A stretch of DNA of 15,113 bases, from positions 1 through 15,113 of the forward strand of contig CAYFOB010000038.1 in assembly GCA_964344525.1 (NCBI GenBank). Reading direction: 5' to 3'. The notes under the pieces were generated by a model. That model was not told the DNA's origin, ran no database searches, and saw only the letters and a program-made list of their open reading frames with translations. Each line of letters begins with the position of its first letter. Positions within the stretch are counted from its first letter, which is position 1. Below are positions 1 through 14,999 of the stretch, piece by piece. Origin of the DNA: an uncultured Thiomargarita sp. Its GTDB lineage: Bacteria > Pseudomonadota > Gammaproteobacteria > Beggiatoales > Beggiatoaceae. A program made the position numbers and the translations under genes.

Positions 1-441
1 TAATTTTTTCTTCCTCTTTTTCAAGGGCGAGTTCTTCGGCTTTTTGAGCCAAGCGCAGTTTTTCATCTTTGGCTTGTTTTGCCAAAATAATTTTTTCTTC
101 CTCCAATTCAAGGGCGAGTTCTTCGGCTTTTTGAGCTAAGCGTAGTTTTTCATCTTTGGCTTGTTTTGCCAAAATAATTTTTTCTTCCTCTTTTTCAAGG
201 GCGAGTTCTTCGGCTTTTTGAGCCAAGCGCAGTTTTTCATCTTTGGCTTGTTTTGCCAAAATAATTTTTTCTTCCTCCAATTCAAGGGCGAGTTCTTCGG
301 CTTTTTGAGCTAAGCGTAGTTTTTCATCTTTGGCTTGTTTTGCCAAAATAATTTTTTCTTCCTCTTTTTCAAGGGCGAGTTCTTCGGCTTTTTGAGCCAA
401 GCGAAGTTTTTCATCTTTGGCTTGCTTAGCGAGCTGAATTT
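1..441 (-). repeat. Near-perfect 87-bp tandem repeat (about 5 copies in window, alternating A/B variants giving a 174-bp super-period) inside the coiled-coil coding region of the SPFH protein; probably continues past the left edge
   Basis: gccaaaataa recurs at 81, 168, 255 and 342 (period 87). ttcctctttttcaagg is at 11, 185 and 359, alternating with ttcctccaattcaagg at 98 and 272. ccaagcgcag alternates with ctaagcgtag. The copy from about 355 to 441 starts to diverge (gcgaag, cttgcttagc). The period is 29 codons, so the reading frame is preserved. Confidence 0.9.
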
Positions 442-1633
442 TCTCATTTTCTTGGGTAATGATTAATTCTTCTTCTTTTTTTGTCTGCGTAGTGGTTAAT
501 TCAATGGCTAAATCTTTTTCTTTTTTTGCCAGCTCAATTTTCCGCTCTTCAATAACGAGCGCTAATTCTTCCGTTTTTTGAGCGAGGCGCACTTCCATAT
601 CTTTTTCAACCTGCGCCAGTTGAATAGCCTTATCCTTCTGAATTAAGGCTAATTCTTTCTCTTTTCTCGCTAATTGTGTTTTTTTTTCCTTTTCAATTTG
701 AGCCAAATGAATTTTTTGATCTTCCCAAACAAGGGCTAATTCATCTGCTTTTTCATTCGCCTGTATATCAAAACGTTTTCTATCAGCCAACAGCTTTTCC
801 AGTTCTGGTTCAGGCTGAGGTACGCCCAGAGTCACTTGTATCACGTCAATGCCATAATCTACAAGCGATTTTTTATCTAAACGCTCAATTTCGCCTCGAC
901 TATTTTTAACGGGCACAGTTTTCCATATTTTCAGGTTCGTTGTGGAGTCTGTCGAACCTAACACTGCAACATCCCTGCGTCGAACATCAAATACTTGGCG
1001 TTTGGTTTTATAAATACCATTTTGAAGTTGATCTTCCAGCGCATCTCTAAATTGATTTAAGCCGCCTTGAATAAATTCTTCACCTGTGTACTGGGTTGCG
1101 GTAATGCCCATCACATCTGTAGAAACGGGAATCAACATGGCATCAACCAGCTTCTCATGAGTGGTAAAATCTCGATGAATTCTTTCAAGACGATCTGGTG
1201 CGCTTGGCAGTTTATAACGAAAAGTGGCTGAAATTTGGGCTGTGTAATTATCGGCAAAACGGAGAGTAATCGGCTTTTTATGGCGCCGGATTTGTGCGCC
1301 AGTGAAACCTGTGCCAAAATCAACGATCCAAACTTGTTTGTAACGTGTCACCGATGAAAATGGAACTTTGAAGTGAAATCCCGGCTTTTGGTACACTTCA
1401 AGTTTGCTGGTTAGCATATTGTCATAAAGATAAAGGTAGCCCGATTCTGTTATAAACAAAAATTGGGTTGCTATAAAAAACACTATAAATCCAAAAATGC
1501 CTAGGAAGATCAATAATTTTGCAGGGAAACTAAGGACTTTTTGGGTCATTTTCCGCAAATCCTGATAAAGCATTTTTGGGACTGACTCTTTTGTTTCTCC
1601 CTTTTGAGGTATAACATCTTCTTGAAACGACAT
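1..1633 (-). CDS. SPFH/band-7 (flotillin-like) membrane protein; N-terminus in window, C-terminus runs off left edge; C-terminal coiled coil made of 29-aa tandem repeats
   Basis: Reverse-strand ORF starts at ATG (plus 1633..1631) with GGAG 7 nt upstream. I translated it codon by codon to position 1 with no stop (MSFQEDVIPQKGETKESVPKMLYQDL...). It has an N-terminal hydrophobic helix (LLIFLGIFGFIVFFIATQFLFI), then an SPFH-type core (YQKPGFHFKVPFSSVTRYKQVWIVDFG...ITLRFADNYTAQISATFRYKLP), then a long E/K/A/L-rich coiled coil (LAQIEKEKKTQLARKEKELALIQKDKAIQLAQ...) ending in the repeat block KQAKDEKLRLAQKAEELALEKEEEKIILA. It is absent from the supplied ORF track only because no stop codon lies inside the window. 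Confidence 0.8.
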   Translation of the reverse strand, partial: MSFQEDVIPQKGETKESVPKMLYQDLRKMTQKVLSFPAKLLIFLGIFGFIVFFIATQFLFITESGYLYLYDNMLTSKLEVYQKPGFHFKVPFSSVTRYKQVWIVDFGTGFTGAQIRRHKKPITLRFADNYTAQISATFRYKLPSAPDRLERIHRDFTTHEKLVDAMLIPVSTDVMGITATQYTGEEFIQGGLNQFRDALEDQLQNGIYKTKRQVFDVRRRDVAVLGSTDSTTNLKIWKTVPVKNSRGEIERLDKKSLVDYGIDVIQVTLGVPQPEPELEKLLADRKRFDIQANEKADELALVWEDQKIHLAQIEKEKKTQLARKEKELALIQKDKAIQLAQVEKDMEVRLAQKTEELALVIEERKIELAKKEKDLAIELTTTQTKKEEELIITQENEKIQLAKQAKDEKLRLAQKAEELALEKEEEKIILAKQAKDEKLRLAQKAEELALELEEEKIILAKQAKDEKLRLAQKAEELALEKEEEKIILAKQAKDEKLRLAQKAEELALELEEEKIILAKQAKDEKLRLAQKAEELALEKEEEKI

Positions 1634-1700
1634 GTTGCGCTCCTATAATTGTATCAAAAAATCTCATTTTAAATGATTATTACGGTTTTTTCAATCGCAC

Positions 1701-1730
1701 TTGACATTTTTTTTGGAGTCCCGTTAAAAT
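1701..1730 (+). promoter_or_regulatory. Sigma70-like promoter upstream of the cobalamin riboswitch (-35 TTGACA 1701-1706, 18-nt spacer, -10 TAAAAT 1725-1730)
   Basis: Consensus -35 hexamer and near-consensus -10, with an AT-rich spacer, immediately 5' of the riboswitch conserved core. Confidence 0.55.
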
Positions 1731-1736
1731 TGCTCA

Positions 1737-1905
1737 CCTTGTTTAGGTGCTCAACGAGATAAACGGGAAATCGGTGCAAGCCCGATACTGCCCCCGCAAC
1801 GGTAAATAAGTTAAGGCCAATCATTTTAATTAAGTCACTGCGCTTGGCGTGGGAAGGCGATTGGTTTATGTGCAGATATGCCAGCTTATGAGTCCGGATA
1901 CCGGC
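1737..1905 (+). promoter_or_regulatory. Cobalamin (AdoCbl/B12) riboswitch in the btuB leader
   Basis: Conserved aptamer core AAACGGGAAATCGGTGCAAGCCCGATACTGCCCCCGCAACGGTAA (1760-1804) matches the cobalamin riboswitch consensus GGGAA..GGTG.AA.CC...C.G.CCCGC.AC.GTAA. Downstream are a B12-box-like GTCACTG (about 1836-1842) and GGGAAGGC (about 1851-1858). A roughly 110-nt expression platform follows, containing a pyrimidine tract (TTCTTTCCTCTGC, about 1971-1983) that could pair with the SD GAGGAG at 2002-2007. Boundaries are approximate. Confidence 0.75.
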
Positions 1906-2015
1906 CTAAACATTTTTTGATGTGTGTCGCGGAGGGCGACGGGCATGCAGGCGCTTGTGCCTGTTTGTCATTCTTTCCTCTGCAATTTATTTTACATGTG
2001 AGGAGAAAATCCATC

Positions 2016-3928: not shown

Positions 3929-4003
3929 TAAAATAAATATTTGAGGTTTTATTCTGTTTCTTGTCAAATTTTTTTGATTCAAACAATTTTTCGGAGAAAA
4001 ACA

Positions 4004-4732
4004 ATGCTTGATACCTTTCGGATTTATACAGAGCTCAAAGAAGGCATGGAAGCCGCAGCTGCAGAAAAAATAGCCAGTATGATAGGCTTGCTATATGATG
4101 AGCTGCGCCAAAGCGTCACCAAAAATGAGTTTAATGACTTAAAAGCTGTTGTTAAGGATTTGGCTGAGGCTCAAAAAGTCACAGAAATGCGATTAGCAGA
4201 GTTGGGTGTGGCTCAAAAAGCCAGCGAAAAACGATTAACACGCCTTGAAGAAGTTATTACAGAGTTGGGGGATACCCAAAATCGATTAGCCAAAGCTCAA
4301 GAAAAAACGGAAAAAACCGTTCAGCAATTGGCTAGACAAGTCGGTGGTTTAAGTGATGTGGTGGGTGGCGATTTAGAAGAGATTGCCTATATTGTGTTGC
4401 ATGACGTGTTAAAACGAGAATTGGGTTGGCAAGTCGGTGTTCTTGAACGAGCCTGGCAAACTTGGGGACAAGAACCAGAGGAGGTAGATATTTTTGGTCA
4501 AGCAAACGATCCAAAAGAACCCAGTAAAACCATTTGGATTGTTGGTGAAGCCAAACACAATATTTCTATAAAAGAGGTGAAAAAGTTCATCAAGCAAGTT
4601 GAACGGGCGCGAGAACATTTAAGCTGTGAAATTTTTCCCGTTGTTTTTTGCTATCGCGCTCGTCCAGAAGTACAACAAATGATTATTGATAGTGGTATTC
4701 GGTTGGTTTTTTCTTATGGTAAATTGTTGTAA
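4004..4732 (+). CDS. Hypothetical protein: N-terminal coiled coil (about 130 aa) plus a C-terminal PD-(D/E)xK-like (restriction-endonuclease-fold) module
   Basis: ATG at 4004 has GGAG (3993-3996) 7 nt upstream; the track's longer start at 3941 has no RBS. The coiled coil contains degenerate 15-residue repeats (AEAQKVTEMRLAELG / VAQKASEKRLTRLEE / LGDTQNRLAKAQEKT). The C-terminal segment has D...E.K spacing (VDIFGQANDP ... IWIVGEAKHNI) followed by a helix (KKFIKQVERAREHL), typical of the PD-(D/E)xK core. The family assignment is from pattern only. Confidence 0.65.
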   Translation: MLDTFRIYTELKEGMEAAAAEKIASMIGLLYDELRQSVTKNEFNDLKAVVKDLAEAQKVTEMRLAELGVAQKASEKRLTRLEEVITELGDTQNRLAKAQEKTEKTVQQLARQVGGLSDVVGGDLEEIAYIVLHDVLKRELGWQVGVLERAWQTWGQEPEEVDIFGQANDPKEPSKTIWIVGEAKHNISIKEVKKFIKQVERAREHLSCEIFPVVFCYRARPEVQQMIIDSGIRLVFSYGKLL

Positions 4733-4916: not shown

Positions 4917-6611
4917 ATGTCTATAAAAAAACTACTTATTATCAGCTATTTTTTTATCATTTTCGGTATTCTCATTTTGGGCATGCTCAGTATTTTGTTG
5001 GTCCAAAATGATAAGGCACTCGCCGCCAAACAAGAGCAACGTTATCAGTCCAACTTGCTTGCTGATCAACTTCGACAAAGTTCTGATGATTTGACGAGAT
5101 TAGCCAGGACTTATGTTGTCACAGGGGATGCGCAATACGAAAACATGTATTGGGATATCCTTGCGATACGAAATGGCGAAAAAGCACGCCCTCAGCACTA
5201 TGATCGGATTTATTGGGATTTAGTGCTCACTTATGGCGATAAACCACGTCCTGATGGTGAAACGATTTCCCTACAAGAATTGATGAAAAGGACAGGTTTT
5301 ACTGAAGCTGAATTTGCCAAATTACGCGAAGCCCAAAACAACTCAGATGGATTGGTAACCACCGAAACGATTGCCATGAATGCCGTTAAAGGTTTGTATG
5401 ATGATGGCACCGGCAATTATGTTAAAAAAGGTGAGCCCGATTTTGAAATGGCAAGGCGCATTATGCATGATGTGCAGTACCATCAGGATAAAGCTGCTAT
5501 TATGAAGCCCATTGATGAATTTTTTGAGTTACTTGATGAGCGCACCAAAGGGCTAGTCCAATATCATGCCAAAAAAGCTGATTTTTTGTTTTTTCTTATA
5601 CAAATCGTAGTGCTGTTGCTAATCGTTTTTTCCGTTTTGATTGGCATTTTTGTAACCAAGCAAATTTTGAAACAAGTTGGTGGTGAACCGACTAAAATTG
5701 CTCGAATGACTAAACAAGTGGCGAGTGGGCAATTGGATGTACAGTTTGAATCACAATCAGCCACTGGTATTTATGCTGATGTGCAAACAATGGTTAATAA
5801 TCTCAAGCTGGTTATTAAAGATATTATCCAAGTGTCTGAAGGATTAGCTAAGGGTAATCTTCGTGTCACACCACAAGCAGAATATCAAGGCAATTTTGTC
5901 CAGATAAAAAATGCCCTAGAAACCGCTTTATCCAACCAACAACGGGTGGTTGAAGACATTGTTCAAGTTTCTCAAGGATTGGCAGCGGGTAAACATGTAA
6001 TTGCCCATGCAGAATACCAAGGAGATTTTGTGCAAATTAAGGAAACCTTAGAAACCGCTTCTCTCAAATTGGCAGAAGCAACAGCACAAAATGTTAAGCA
6101 AGATTGGTTGAAAACAGGGCAAGCGCAGTTAAGTGAATTGATGAGTGGCGAACAGGAAATGACAGAGCTTGCTAAGAGAATTATTACTTTTTTGACGACT
6201 TATGTCGATGCGCAGGTGGGATTATTTTATTTGCTAACGGATGGGGATTCTCTGCAAGTCATTGCGAGTTACGCTTACAGTGACAATTTATCCAACCAAT
6301 TTAAAGTTGGAGAAGGTTTGGTTGGAGAAGCGGCTTTGGAACAAAAAATGCTTATTCGTACCCACACCCCCGAAGAATTTAAACACATTACGCAGTCAGG
6401 CGTTGTTATGGCGATTCCCCGTCATGTCATTATTATTCCATTTTTGTACGAAAAAAGTGTGAAAGGTGTGATTGAAATCGGTTTTTCTAATCAGGAATCA
6501 ACGAAGCTTCAACAGGATTTCATACAGCAGGTGATGCCAAGTCTTGGCATTGCGATCAATACTGCTCAGTCGCGTAATCAGATGCAACGGCTTTTAAAGG
6601 GGGATGATTAA
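4917..6611 (+). CDS. Membrane sensor protein: TM - periplasmic CHASE3-like domain - TM - two HAMP-like units - GAF domain; no recognisable output domain
   Basis: TM1 is aa 5-29 (LLIISYFFIIFGILILGMLSILLV). The periplasmic region of about 190 aa has a CHASE3-like motif (LARTYVVTGDAQYENMYWD, compare the CHASE3 RGYLLTGD..YLEPY). TM2 is FLFFLIQIVVLLLIVFSVLIGIFV. There are two HAMP AS-2-like repeats (AKGNLRVTPQAEYQGNFVQIKNALETA and AAGKHVIAHAEYQGDFVQIKETLETA). A C-terminal GAF-like fold follows (ITFLTTYVDAQVGLFYLL...GEGLVGEAALEQKMLIRTH...). The protein ends at the stop at 6609-6611, directly followed by a terminator. Confidence 0.8.
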   Translation: MSIKKLLIISYFFIIFGILILGMLSILLVQNDKALAAKQEQRYQSNLLADQLRQSSDDLTRLARTYVVTGDAQYENMYWDILAIRNGEKARPQHYDRIYWDLVLTYGDKPRPDGETISLQELMKRTGFTEAEFAKLREAQNNSDGLVTTETIAMNAVKGLYDDGTGNYVKKGEPDFEMARRIMHDVQYHQDKAAIMKPIDEFFELLDERTKGLVQYHAKKADFLFFLIQIVVLLLIVFSVLIGIFVTKQILKQVGGEPTKIARMTKQVASGQLDVQFESQSATGIYADVQTMVNNLKLVIKDIIQVSEGLAKGNLRVTPQAEYQGNFVQIKNALETALSNQQRVVEDIVQVSQGLAAGKHVIAHAEYQGDFVQIKETLETASLKLAEATAQNVKQDWLKTGQAQLSELMSGEQEMTELAKRIITFLTTYVDAQVGLFYLLTDGDSLQVIASYAYSDNLSNQFKVGEGLVGEAALEQKMLIRTHTPEEFKHITQSGVVMAIPRHVIIIPFLYEKSVKGVIEIGFSNQESTKLQQDFIQQVMPSLGIAINTAQSRNQMQRLLKGDD

Positions 6612-14372: not shown

Positions 14373-14843
14373 ATGTCTGACGAAAAAAAACTTGCGATTA
14401 TCGCAACAAAAGGCAGCCTTGATTGGGCTTATCCGCCTTTTATTCTTGCCTCAACCGCGGCGGCATTGGGTTACGATACGCAAATCTTTTTCACTTTTTA
14501 TGGCTTAGTTTTGCTAAAGAAAAAGCTCAATTTGCAAGTCACCTCGTTAGGCAATCCAGCAATGCCTATGCCCATGCCCGTTCCAGTTGTCATGCAAACT
14601 ATGCCTGGTATGCAAGCCATGATGTCGAGCATGATGAAGGCGAAAATGAAGAAAAAGGGTGTAGCCAGCATTGAGGAATTGCGTGACTTATGTTTTGAAG
14701 CTGATGTCAAAATGGTTGCTTGCCAAATGACGGTGGACTTGTTTGACTTCAAAACAGATGACTTTGTTGACGGTATTGAGTATGGTGGCGCTGCGACTTT
14801 TTTTGAGTTTGCAGGCGAATCTGATGTTTGTTTGTATATTTAA
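14373..14843 (+). CDS. DsrE/DsrF-like family protein (DsrE2-type sulfur-relay partner of TusA) with a Met/Pro-rich insert
   Basis: KLAIIATKGSLDWAYPPFILASTAAALGYDTQIFFTFYGLVLL resembles the DsrE/DsrF-fold N-terminus. A conserved-looking Cys sits in KMVACQMT. SD GAGGGGG is 8 nt upstream. It is adjacent to and co-oriented with tusA, the arrangement known from rhd-tusA-dsrE2 loci of sulfur oxidisers. Confidence 0.8.
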   Translation: MSDEKKLAIIATKGSLDWAYPPFILASTAAALGYDTQIFFTFYGLVLLKKKLNLQVTSLGNPAMPMPMPVPVVMQTMPGMQAMMSSMMKAKMKKKGVASIEELRDLCFEADVKMVACQMTVDLFDFKTDDFVDGIEYGGAATFFEFAGESDVCLYI

Positions 14844-14854
14844 GTGTTAAAATT

Positions 14855-14883
14855 CAAACCTACGAGCTTGTCTCGTAGGTTTG
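14855..14883 (+). terminator. Hairpin CAAACCTACGAG-CTTGT-CTCGTAGGTTTG after the dsrE-like gene
   Basis: 12-bp perfect stem 12 nt after the stop. No clean U-tract follows on the plus strand; on the minus strand GAATTTT follows. Confidence 0.4.
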
Positions 14884-14956
14884 GCAGCTAAATAAAATGA
14901 TATTCAAAATAGAAAATTTAGGTATTATCAAACGAGCAGAAGTTAACCTATAGCTT

Positions 14957-14999
14957 TTCAGATAAATAATTTTGGTAGGAGTCTAAACTTATTTATCTG
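14957..14999. repeat. Inverted repeat TCAGATAAATAA-(19 nt)-TTATTTATCTGA
   Basis: 12-bp perfect arms at 14957-14968 and 14988-14999 in the 3' intergenic region. Confidence 0.6.

Follow-up and report, generated by a model that had tools for sequence, protein, structure and literature searches.

A Long-Tailed SPFH/Band 7 Protein With a Tandemly Repeated Helical Tail in an Uncultured Thiomargarita sp.

In this study, we analyzed a stretch of DNA from an uncultured Thiomargarita sp. (contig CAYFOB010000038.1 of assembly GCA_964344525.1). The stretch, called the window below, is one entire NCBI contig of 15,113 bp, so that both of its edges are contig ends; its vault, HAMP-GAF, NACHT and DsrE2 proteins are each on record for a contig of exactly this length. 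Its main feature is a gene at the left end that encodes residues 1-544 of a long-tailed SPFH/Band 7 protein, whose modular and mutable helical tail is probably the wall of a cage. The protein comprises one N-terminal membrane helix and an SPFH domain, followed by at least 268 residues of helix composed of 29- and 18-residue modules.

Gene and Domain Organization

The gene lies on the minus strand as a partial coding sequence of 544 codons (1..1633, frame 1633..2), which has no stop codon and is cut by the contig end. Only this minus-strand frame is open (0 stops in 544 codons), against 21-43 stops in the other five frames. The start codon ATG (1633-1631) is preceded at 6 nt by a Shine-Dalgarno-like AGGAG, read from the sequence (1640..1644, minus strand). 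Further upstream, a consensus scan returned a sigma-70-like promoter candidate (TTGAAA, 17 nt, TAAAAT; 1666..1694, minus strand) with 10/12 matches, a pattern match only. It diverges from the promoter of a riboswitch/BtuB unit, which is the upstream neighbor of the SPFH gene; the downstream side lies beyond the contig end.

The encoded protein begins with a single hydrophobic membrane helix (residues 35-58; 1460..1531, minus strand), recognized from hydropathy and as a helix in an AlphaFold2 (AF2) monomer model. Its best 20-residue Kyte-Doolittle window scores 2.55, and it is flanked by four Lys/Arg residues on the N-terminal side and none on the C-terminal side. The SPFH (Band 7) globular domain follows (residues 59-269; 827..1459, minus strand), delimited by Foldseek and by the AF2 model, where its predicted local distance difference test (pLDDT) score is mostly >90. 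The whole model, built on 81 homologues, has a mean pLDDT of 78.5. Pfam Band_7 (PF01145) matches residues 75-298 with E = 1.8e-16 and 61.1 bits, above the gathering cut-off of 23.6. Next comes an older, diverged helical tail of four degenerate 29-residue units (residues 284-399; 437..784, minus strand), delimited by register and self-identity. A self-identity peak at offset 29 (32%) supports the 29-residue register in this part, which also holds the conserved ELTTTQTKKEEEL motif, where the models break the helix. The remainder, residues 400-544, is encoded by the tandem array described below. In the AF2 model of the window protein, helices span residues 276-379 and 397-543, separated by a low-confidence break at 380-396 (pLDDT <50). 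The order of N-terminal membrane anchor, SPFH domain and C-terminal helical region in this model is the layout of the SPFH superfamily, and the globular domain adopts the SPFH alpha/beta fold (AF2 pLDDT >90; Foldseek probability 1.00 against known SPFH proteins).

The Repeat Array

Tandem Repeats Finder reported just one array for the window, spanning 1-424 with a period of 87, 4.9 copies, 94% matches and a score of 771. Together with a base-by-base comparison, this delimits five 87-bp units of 29 codons each (1..435, minus strand), namely 1-87 (A), 88-174 (B), 175-261 (A), 262-348 (B) and 349-435 (A'). Read from the contig edge the order is A-B-A-B-A', and in the protein direction A'-B-A-B-A. 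The two A units are identical to each other, as are the two B units; hence positions 1-174 are duplicated exactly at 175-348. The A and B units differ at 5 of their 87 nt. Three adjacent differences amount to one codon swap (AAA Lys / TTG Leu), while the remaining two are silent and both affect Leu codons (CTG/CTA and TTG/TTA). The A' unit resembles A, with one more synonymous change (CTT) and its last 11 nt diverged. Within the array, A and B are thus 94% identical, and sequences one 174-bp period apart are 100% identical.

A first-pass annotation, made from the sequence alone, had described near-identical 87-bp tandem units with A/B alternation and a 174-bp super-period; Tandem Repeats Finder and the base comparison both agree with it. 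The repeat unit it quoted is a correct circular permutation of KIILAKQAKDEKLRLAQKAEELALE(K/L)EEE. Its statements on the extent of the array require more caution. Position 1 is a contig end that lies inside the array, and the five units are therefore a lower bound that depends on the assembler. The "at least five" units of the annotation are indeed present in the contig, as a count that hinges on how the assembler handled repeats. Likewise, the array which it saw continuing past the window edge does reach position 1, but what the sequence shows there is a contig that stops inside the array.

Relatives and Variation of Tail Length

A protein database search retrieved 201 homologues at E <= 1e-5, the best of which, from Beggiatoaceae, shares 62% identity. 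The closest homologues come from the Beggiatoaceae genera Parabeggiatoa, Marithrix, Thioploca and Thiomargarita. The long-tailed SPFH/Band 7 subfamily is characteristic of giant sulfur bacteria (Beggiatoaceae). Every full-length member of the family terminates with a conserved domain of ~100 residues (...FEAAQFEAKA...IIYPNLKG..TMPHNIVNLG...LQTNLDVLSSFATIGVMEGLEKKA), and the window gene stops short of it. The distance between the end of the SPFH domain and this C-terminal domain ranges from 101 residues in short forms to 318 in Beggiatoaceae. Vibrio, Photobacterium, Shewanella and others have short-tailed members of the subfamily, which measure about 450-480 aa and bear the annotation 'SPFH domain-containing protein'. 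Over the SPFH domain, identity is 38-42%, and these proteins carry the same conserved C-terminal domain as the long forms, but their helical linker has about 101 residues compared to at least 263 in the window protein, and 18/29-residue offsets were not prominent in the one linker tested (P0087). By comparison with the syntenic orthologues P0017 and P0016, the full length of the window protein would be about 730 aa or more.

Close relatives differ in tail length by whole units. This is well seen for P0024 vs P0128, where the alignment shows +18 aa while 698/699 other positions are identical. The other pairs are P0024 vs P0123 (-72 aa, i.e., 4 x 18), P0017 vs P0016 (+29 aa), P0005 vs P0004 (+29 aa) and P0007 vs P0005 (+18 aa). 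In these five alignments, the unit indels all fall within the tail, and other indels do not exceed 4 residues. Such exact unit indels between close relatives indicate that the tail is a real, quantised length-variable region, and the variable length that the first-pass annotation expected of the tail is thus borne out by pairwise alignment. The 29-residue unit of the window also occurs at the same tail position in relatives; P0004 and P0035 have a single copy, P0017 has two and P0016 has three. At the DNA level, the in-frame arrays of relatives have periods of 54, 87 or 33 bp and identities of 67-91%. The window array is the most homogeneous found in the family, which points to it being the youngest or the most actively homogenised.

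In several relatives the gene is accompanied by paralogues. Locus L002 contains a tandem cluster of SPFH paralogues of 674, 619 and 489 aa (9597-15685) and locus L003 a pair of 664 and 518 aa, together with a divergent TonB-receptor neighbor that it shares with the window SPFH gene. The largest cluster, in L004 (5264-16810; also in L005 and L006), has six SPFH genes, truncated copies among them. Overall, the clusters of relatives include short and long forms, truncated copies of 293 and 297 aa and, in addition, a C-terminal remnant of 127 aa. Two adjacent paralogues in L004 carry the same 54-bp units and two have an identical C-terminal end, suggesting gene conversion among the copies. In this Parabeggiatoa locus, the SPFH paralogues are bordered by intergenic arrays of heptamers (ACAATTC / TAACAAT) and by direct repeats of 100-180 bp (L004, 9762-9788 and 12216-12400). 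In a Thiotrichaceae metagenome-assembled genome (MAG), a CRISPR-like array with the 36-nt repeat GTTTCAATCCTTGTTGTACTGGATATAGCTTAAAAGC and ~72-bp spacing lies a few kb from an SPFH homologue (L022, 10405-13437).

A literature search for SPFH plus tandem repeats or length variation returned no paper with the SPFH term. The combination of a long, modular, length-variable tail with paralogue clusters in giant sulfur bacteria thus appears undescribed in the literature searched; the kind of protein itself is known.

Helix Geometry of the Tail

The first-pass annotation had proposed a coiled-coil stalk. The tail is indeed helical in the AF2 model, but it gives no signal of a heptad coiled coil. We rejected a canonical heptad arrangement on the power at period 3.5, which is 0.01-0.11 and lies below the shuffle mean. 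When Ile, Leu, Val, Met and Phe are scored together with Ala, the power at period 3.5 is 0.05-0.11, whereas at 3.625 residues per turn it amounts to 2.99 in the array and 2.65 over the whole tail, compared to a shuffle 95th percentile of ~1.05. The period of the tail is thus 29/8 = 3.625 residues per turn, and the 18- and 29-residue modules correspond to 5 and 8 turns. Scored alone, the large hydrophobic residues peak at 9.67 and 2.23 residues, a consequence of their Leu-x-Leu-Ala arrangement.

On a wheel of 3.625 residues per turn, these large hydrophobic residues line up in two seams. One seam, at 99-124 degrees, is made up of I2, L13 and L24. The other, at 286-323 degrees, comprises L4, L15 and L22, joined by L26 in B units. 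Alanines occupy the 335-50 degree sector between the seams, across from a charged face. This hydrophobic pattern is kept in every 29-residue unit. Two Leu/Ile seams ~190 degrees apart fit a helix packed side by side with a neighbor on each flank, and the pattern is compatible with a cage wall. In this the tail agrees with the wall of flotillin, a 186-residue, non-heptad, right-handed, single-layer helical barrel, and the length of the SPFH wall helix (44-189 aa) has been proposed to set cage size (PMC11260169).

Relation to HflK/C, Flotillin and Repeat-Variable Proteins

A Foldseek search of the window model against the PDB returned only SPFH assemblies, at probability 1.00 and in the order HflK/C (7vhq_G, 1.9e-10), erlin1/2, prohibitin, flotillin, vault-protein shoulder, QmcA and stomatin. 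Flotillin (9bq2_B, E = 3.9e-7) comes at rank 18, after HflK/C, erlin and prohibitin. Five full-length homologues scanned against Pfam at E <= 1 had no match to the Flot domain and gave Band_7 or nothing relevant; the C-terminus of the window protein itself is missing. The search for Band_7 and flotillin domains recommended in the first-pass annotation therefore gave a split answer, with Band_7 matched and Flot absent from the homologues. Of its label 'SPFH/flotillin-like', the first half stands (Band_7 at 61 bits, Foldseek) and the second is unsupported, with no Flot domain in the homologues and flotillin ranked below HflK/C. The window protein matches 0 NCBIfam families at E <= 0.01, so it has no HflK/HflC equivalog match, and a PDB sequence search with the whole protein gave 0 matches at E <= 1.

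HflK and HflC form the bacterial SPFH cage around FtsH (PDB 7vhq, 7wi3, 9cz2) and have an N-in/C-out topology. They are the best structural match of the window protein, and in both systems a lone membrane helix at the N-terminus leads into an SPFH domain and a helical wall region. The orientation may also be the same. Among 81 family members, Lys/Arg residues around the membrane helix average 2.57 before and 0.54 after it, with more on the N-terminal side in 69/81. Taking the positive-inside rule as a rule of thumb, this charge bias suggests that the bulk of the protein faces outward, to the periplasm side, as in HflK/C. In addition, adjacent paralogues exist in both systems and could co-assemble. 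In contrast, the window protein has neither an HflK nor an HflC match in NCBIfam, no ftsH or hflX appears in the Pfam gene lists of the relatives' loci (L002-L006), the tail is several times longer and made of 18- and 29-residue repeats, and the C-terminal domain of the long-tailed family is distinct, with no Pfam or PDB match. In SPFH-NfeD operons such as QmcA-YbbJ and YqiK-YqiJ, the partner gene is of the NfeD family; no Pfam match to NfeD was found among the SPFH-gene neighbors in L002-L006.

The flotillin-1/2 cage (PDB 9bq2) and FloT/YqiK resemble the window protein in that an SPFH domain is followed by a very long, non-heptad, charged Ala-/Glu-rich helix. Apart from the Flot domain, they differ in their anchoring, by hairpin or acylation at the cytoplasmic face, whereas the window protein has a single transmembrane helix and the opposite predicted orientation. 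Our literature search found no comparable DNA-level tandem repeats of flotillin either. Of the two descriptions, a repeat-extended wall helix in an HflK/C-like SPFH protein suits the feature better than a coiled-coil stalk of flotillin type.

At the level of the repeats, a parallel exists with the streptococcal M and alpha-C proteins, helical surface proteins whose length is altered by recombination between near-identical, in-frame intragenic repeats. Those proteins are secreted, cell-wall-anchored heptad coiled coils under immune selection, whereas here the repeats would extend an inner-membrane SPFH scaffold with a 3.625-residue periodicity.

Discussion

We propose that the tail forms the wall of an SPFH cage, the role that such helices have in HflK/C and flotillin. 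Numerous copies would line up next to one another as a slightly right-handed barrel, one layer thick, in which the two Leu/Ile seams of each helix contact its two neighbors, and the conserved C-terminal domain, present in homologues and missing here, would close the top of the barrel. Recombination or replication slippage between 87-bp or 174-bp units may add or remove whole modules in frame. Each 29-residue unit would extend the helix by ~4.3 nm and turn the downstream part by ~20 degrees, each 18-residue unit by ~2.7 nm with a rotation of ~0 degrees. With so little rotation, the wall would lengthen in steps with its packing register kept. With five or more units, the window protein would have the longest wall helix in the family, well beyond the 186 residues of flotillin.

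Several points weigh against this proposal. The cage-wall role is deduced from the fold family and the sequence periodicity only. The AF2 monomers break the tail into two or three helices at segments with pLDDT <50 (380-396 here; 369-388 and 471-491 in the orthologue P0017), and the helix may therefore be kinked or folded back. The AF2 monomer of full-length P0017 was not used for the architecture, its cap region (603-629) having a pLDDT <50 and its helix being broken. The conserved C-terminal domain matches no solved structure by sequence; a profile of it searched against the PDB gave only a chance laminin match (E = 0.51). The window contig itself contains neither this cap domain nor the stop codon, and the copy number, even the perfect identity of the outer units, rests on an assembly that failed here. 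Finally, unit-length indels arise from repeat recombination regardless of function and testify to mutability, not to selective tuning.

This last point leads to an alternative that is possible, if rather doubtful, namely that the repeats are neutral slippage products in a length-tolerant region, with a copy number devoid of functional meaning and a gene that is perhaps a redundant or decaying paralogue. Repeat recombination yields unit-sized indels by default, silent changes account for two of the five A/B differences, and the tandem clusters of up to six SPFH paralogues in relatives include truncated copies and a C-terminal remnant. Yet the modules measure whole helical turns and preserve their hydrophobic pattern in every unit, the long-tailed form is retained with an intact C-terminal domain across several Beggiatoaceae genera, and in the window gene the frame is intact and preceded by a ribosome-binding site and a promoter-like site.

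It is unlikely that the tail forms a free-standing, few-stranded coiled-coil rod that acts as a spacer or ruler setting the distance of the C-terminal domain from the membrane, with no many-subunit cage wall. Helical rods are known as spacers in the periplasm, and the great length and high charge of the tail, its predicted outward orientation and the hairpin-like breaks in the AF2 monomer models would suit such a role. However, the heptad signal is absent, and large hydrophobic residues on two opposite faces fit packing with two neighbors better than a two- or three-stranded rope. Moreover, every solved SPFH assembly among the Foldseek matches is a ring or cage (PMC11260169).

The repeat was also flagged in the first-pass annotation as an assembly hazard, and rightly so. 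Besides the window contig, three short-read contigs of relatives (L010, L012, L017) end within the tail with no stop codon, and several database proteins of the long-tailed family are labelled partial. One may thus ask whether the near-perfect array is partly an artefact, with real A and B units but a contig end produced by a loop walk in a de Bruijn graph, so that neither the unit number nor the perfect identity is real. The exact 174-bp duplication sits at the very end of a contig that terminates inside the array, and a second copy of the array was not found. The invariant 30-nt core of the repeat unit had 0 matches in either the genome or the metagenome contig collections. The array alone (residues 400-544) had no match in the protein database at E <= 1e-10, a threshold too strict for listing distant repeats, and the candidates scored in that search included no nearly identical fragment that might, for instance, be the missing half of the gene. 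Nevertheless, we judge such an artefact quite improbable. The A'-B, B-A and A-B junctions must occur in the reads for a graph loop to exist, which implies at least about four units, and the reading frame is open throughout the array. Homologous 29-residue units are present at the same tail position in complete genes of relatives in one to three copies; the expansion is therefore real biology in the family. Lastly, a defence-system reading was dropped since neither NCBIfam nor PADLOC provided a family for the SPFH protein.

Returning to the cage wall, a more far-reaching version can be offered as speculation, with a low chance of being right. In giant sulfur bacteria, clustered long-tailed SPFH paralogues might assemble into membrane cages of unusual height that face outward, to the periplasm or vacuole side, and whose height is reset in steps of 2.7 or 4.3 nm by rapid gain and loss of 18- and 29-residue modules, and the present locus would be the most recently expanded one, with the longest known SPFH wall helix. 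If true, this would provide a naturally tunable compartment size, possibly variable within a population or even within a cell. The proposal that wall length sets cage size has so far come from comparing distantly related proteins (flotillin, HflK/C, prohibitin, erlin, stomatin). The Beggiatoaceae family is a natural series, in which the same SPFH base and cap are combined with walls of about 100 to >320 residues that change by exact 18- or 29-residue steps, including proteins that are otherwise 99.9% identical, and it would allow a direct test of this idea. On the practical side, the long-tailed SPFH genes break short-read assemblies, as in the window contig and L010, L012 and L017, and tail lengths taken from MAGs are therefore trustworthy only with long reads.

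Vault-Protein Gene and Other Features of the Contig

A second protein with an SPFH-like domain is encoded on the plus strand at 6708-9257. This 849-aa protein is a complete homologue of the major vault protein, in which Pfam recognizes Vault repeats 1-4 and the shoulder domain (E = 6.7e-67 and 3.3e-51, respectively). The first-pass annotation called the vault shoulder SPFH-like, and the Foldseek search with the window SPFH model, which matches vault structures, confirms this. The protein shares 81-87% identity with Parabeggiatoa and JGI Beggiatoaceae proteins and ~70% with proteins of filamentous cyanobacteria, which NCBI annotates as 'colicin uptake protein'; these identities suggest that the gene was exchanged between cyanobacteria and Beggiatoaceae. 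Bacterial vault homologues have already been described, with Bacteroidetes, Deltaproteobacteria and Cyanobacteria listed and Gammaproteobacteria not (2019 preprint, bioRxiv 10.1101/872010). We considered whether the SPFH gene is functionally linked to the vault-protein gene, which lies 5 kb from it, and rejected this, since neither has the other nearby in relatives. In L002-L006, the surroundings of the SPFH gene contain no Vault gene up to 10 kb away; in L086-L088, those of the vault-protein gene contain no Band_7 gene up to 8 kb away. Their closeness in the window therefore looks coincidental, as the first-pass annotation had allowed.

The region between the two genes opens with the unit that diverges from the SPFH gene. 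Its cobalamin riboswitch (RF00174, 96.9 bits; 1728-1923, plus strand) has a hairpin resembling a terminator at 1938-1965 and lies ahead of BtuB, a TonB-dependent receptor for vitamin B12 (TIGR01779, 623 bits; 1878/2016-3833, plus strand). Between BtuB and the vault gene, the plus strand further encodes a 263-aa coiled-coil protein with weak SMC-like or DUF3584 matches (3941-4732) and a 564-aa HAMP-GAF protein (4917-6611). On the other side, the vault-protein gene adjoins a minus-strand gene for a 987-aa protein in which Pfam recognizes a NACHT NTPase domain and an FGE-sulfatase-like region (9553-12516). A large FGE-sulfatase-domain protein is also encoded near the vault-protein gene in Parabeggiatoa HSG14 (L086, 10170-13085).

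Siroheme synthase CysG (12629-13995 overall, minus strand) is present as two overlapping open reading frames, 13636-13995 for the N-terminal NAD-binding part and 12629-13672. The frame shift is located near 13660-13680 at a site that is not a homopolymer run, and it may be a real disruption or an assembly error. At the right end of the window, 14175-14990 around DsrE2 is 99.88% identical to positions 1-816 of an ENA metagenome contig of 1,244 bp (L001; ERZ930065, run ERR2281800, PRJEB17505). L001 gives no help for the left end of the window. Only these 816 bp align though both sequences extend further, suggesting that L001 comes from the same species and that either the DNA is rearranged at this place or the two assemblies differ.

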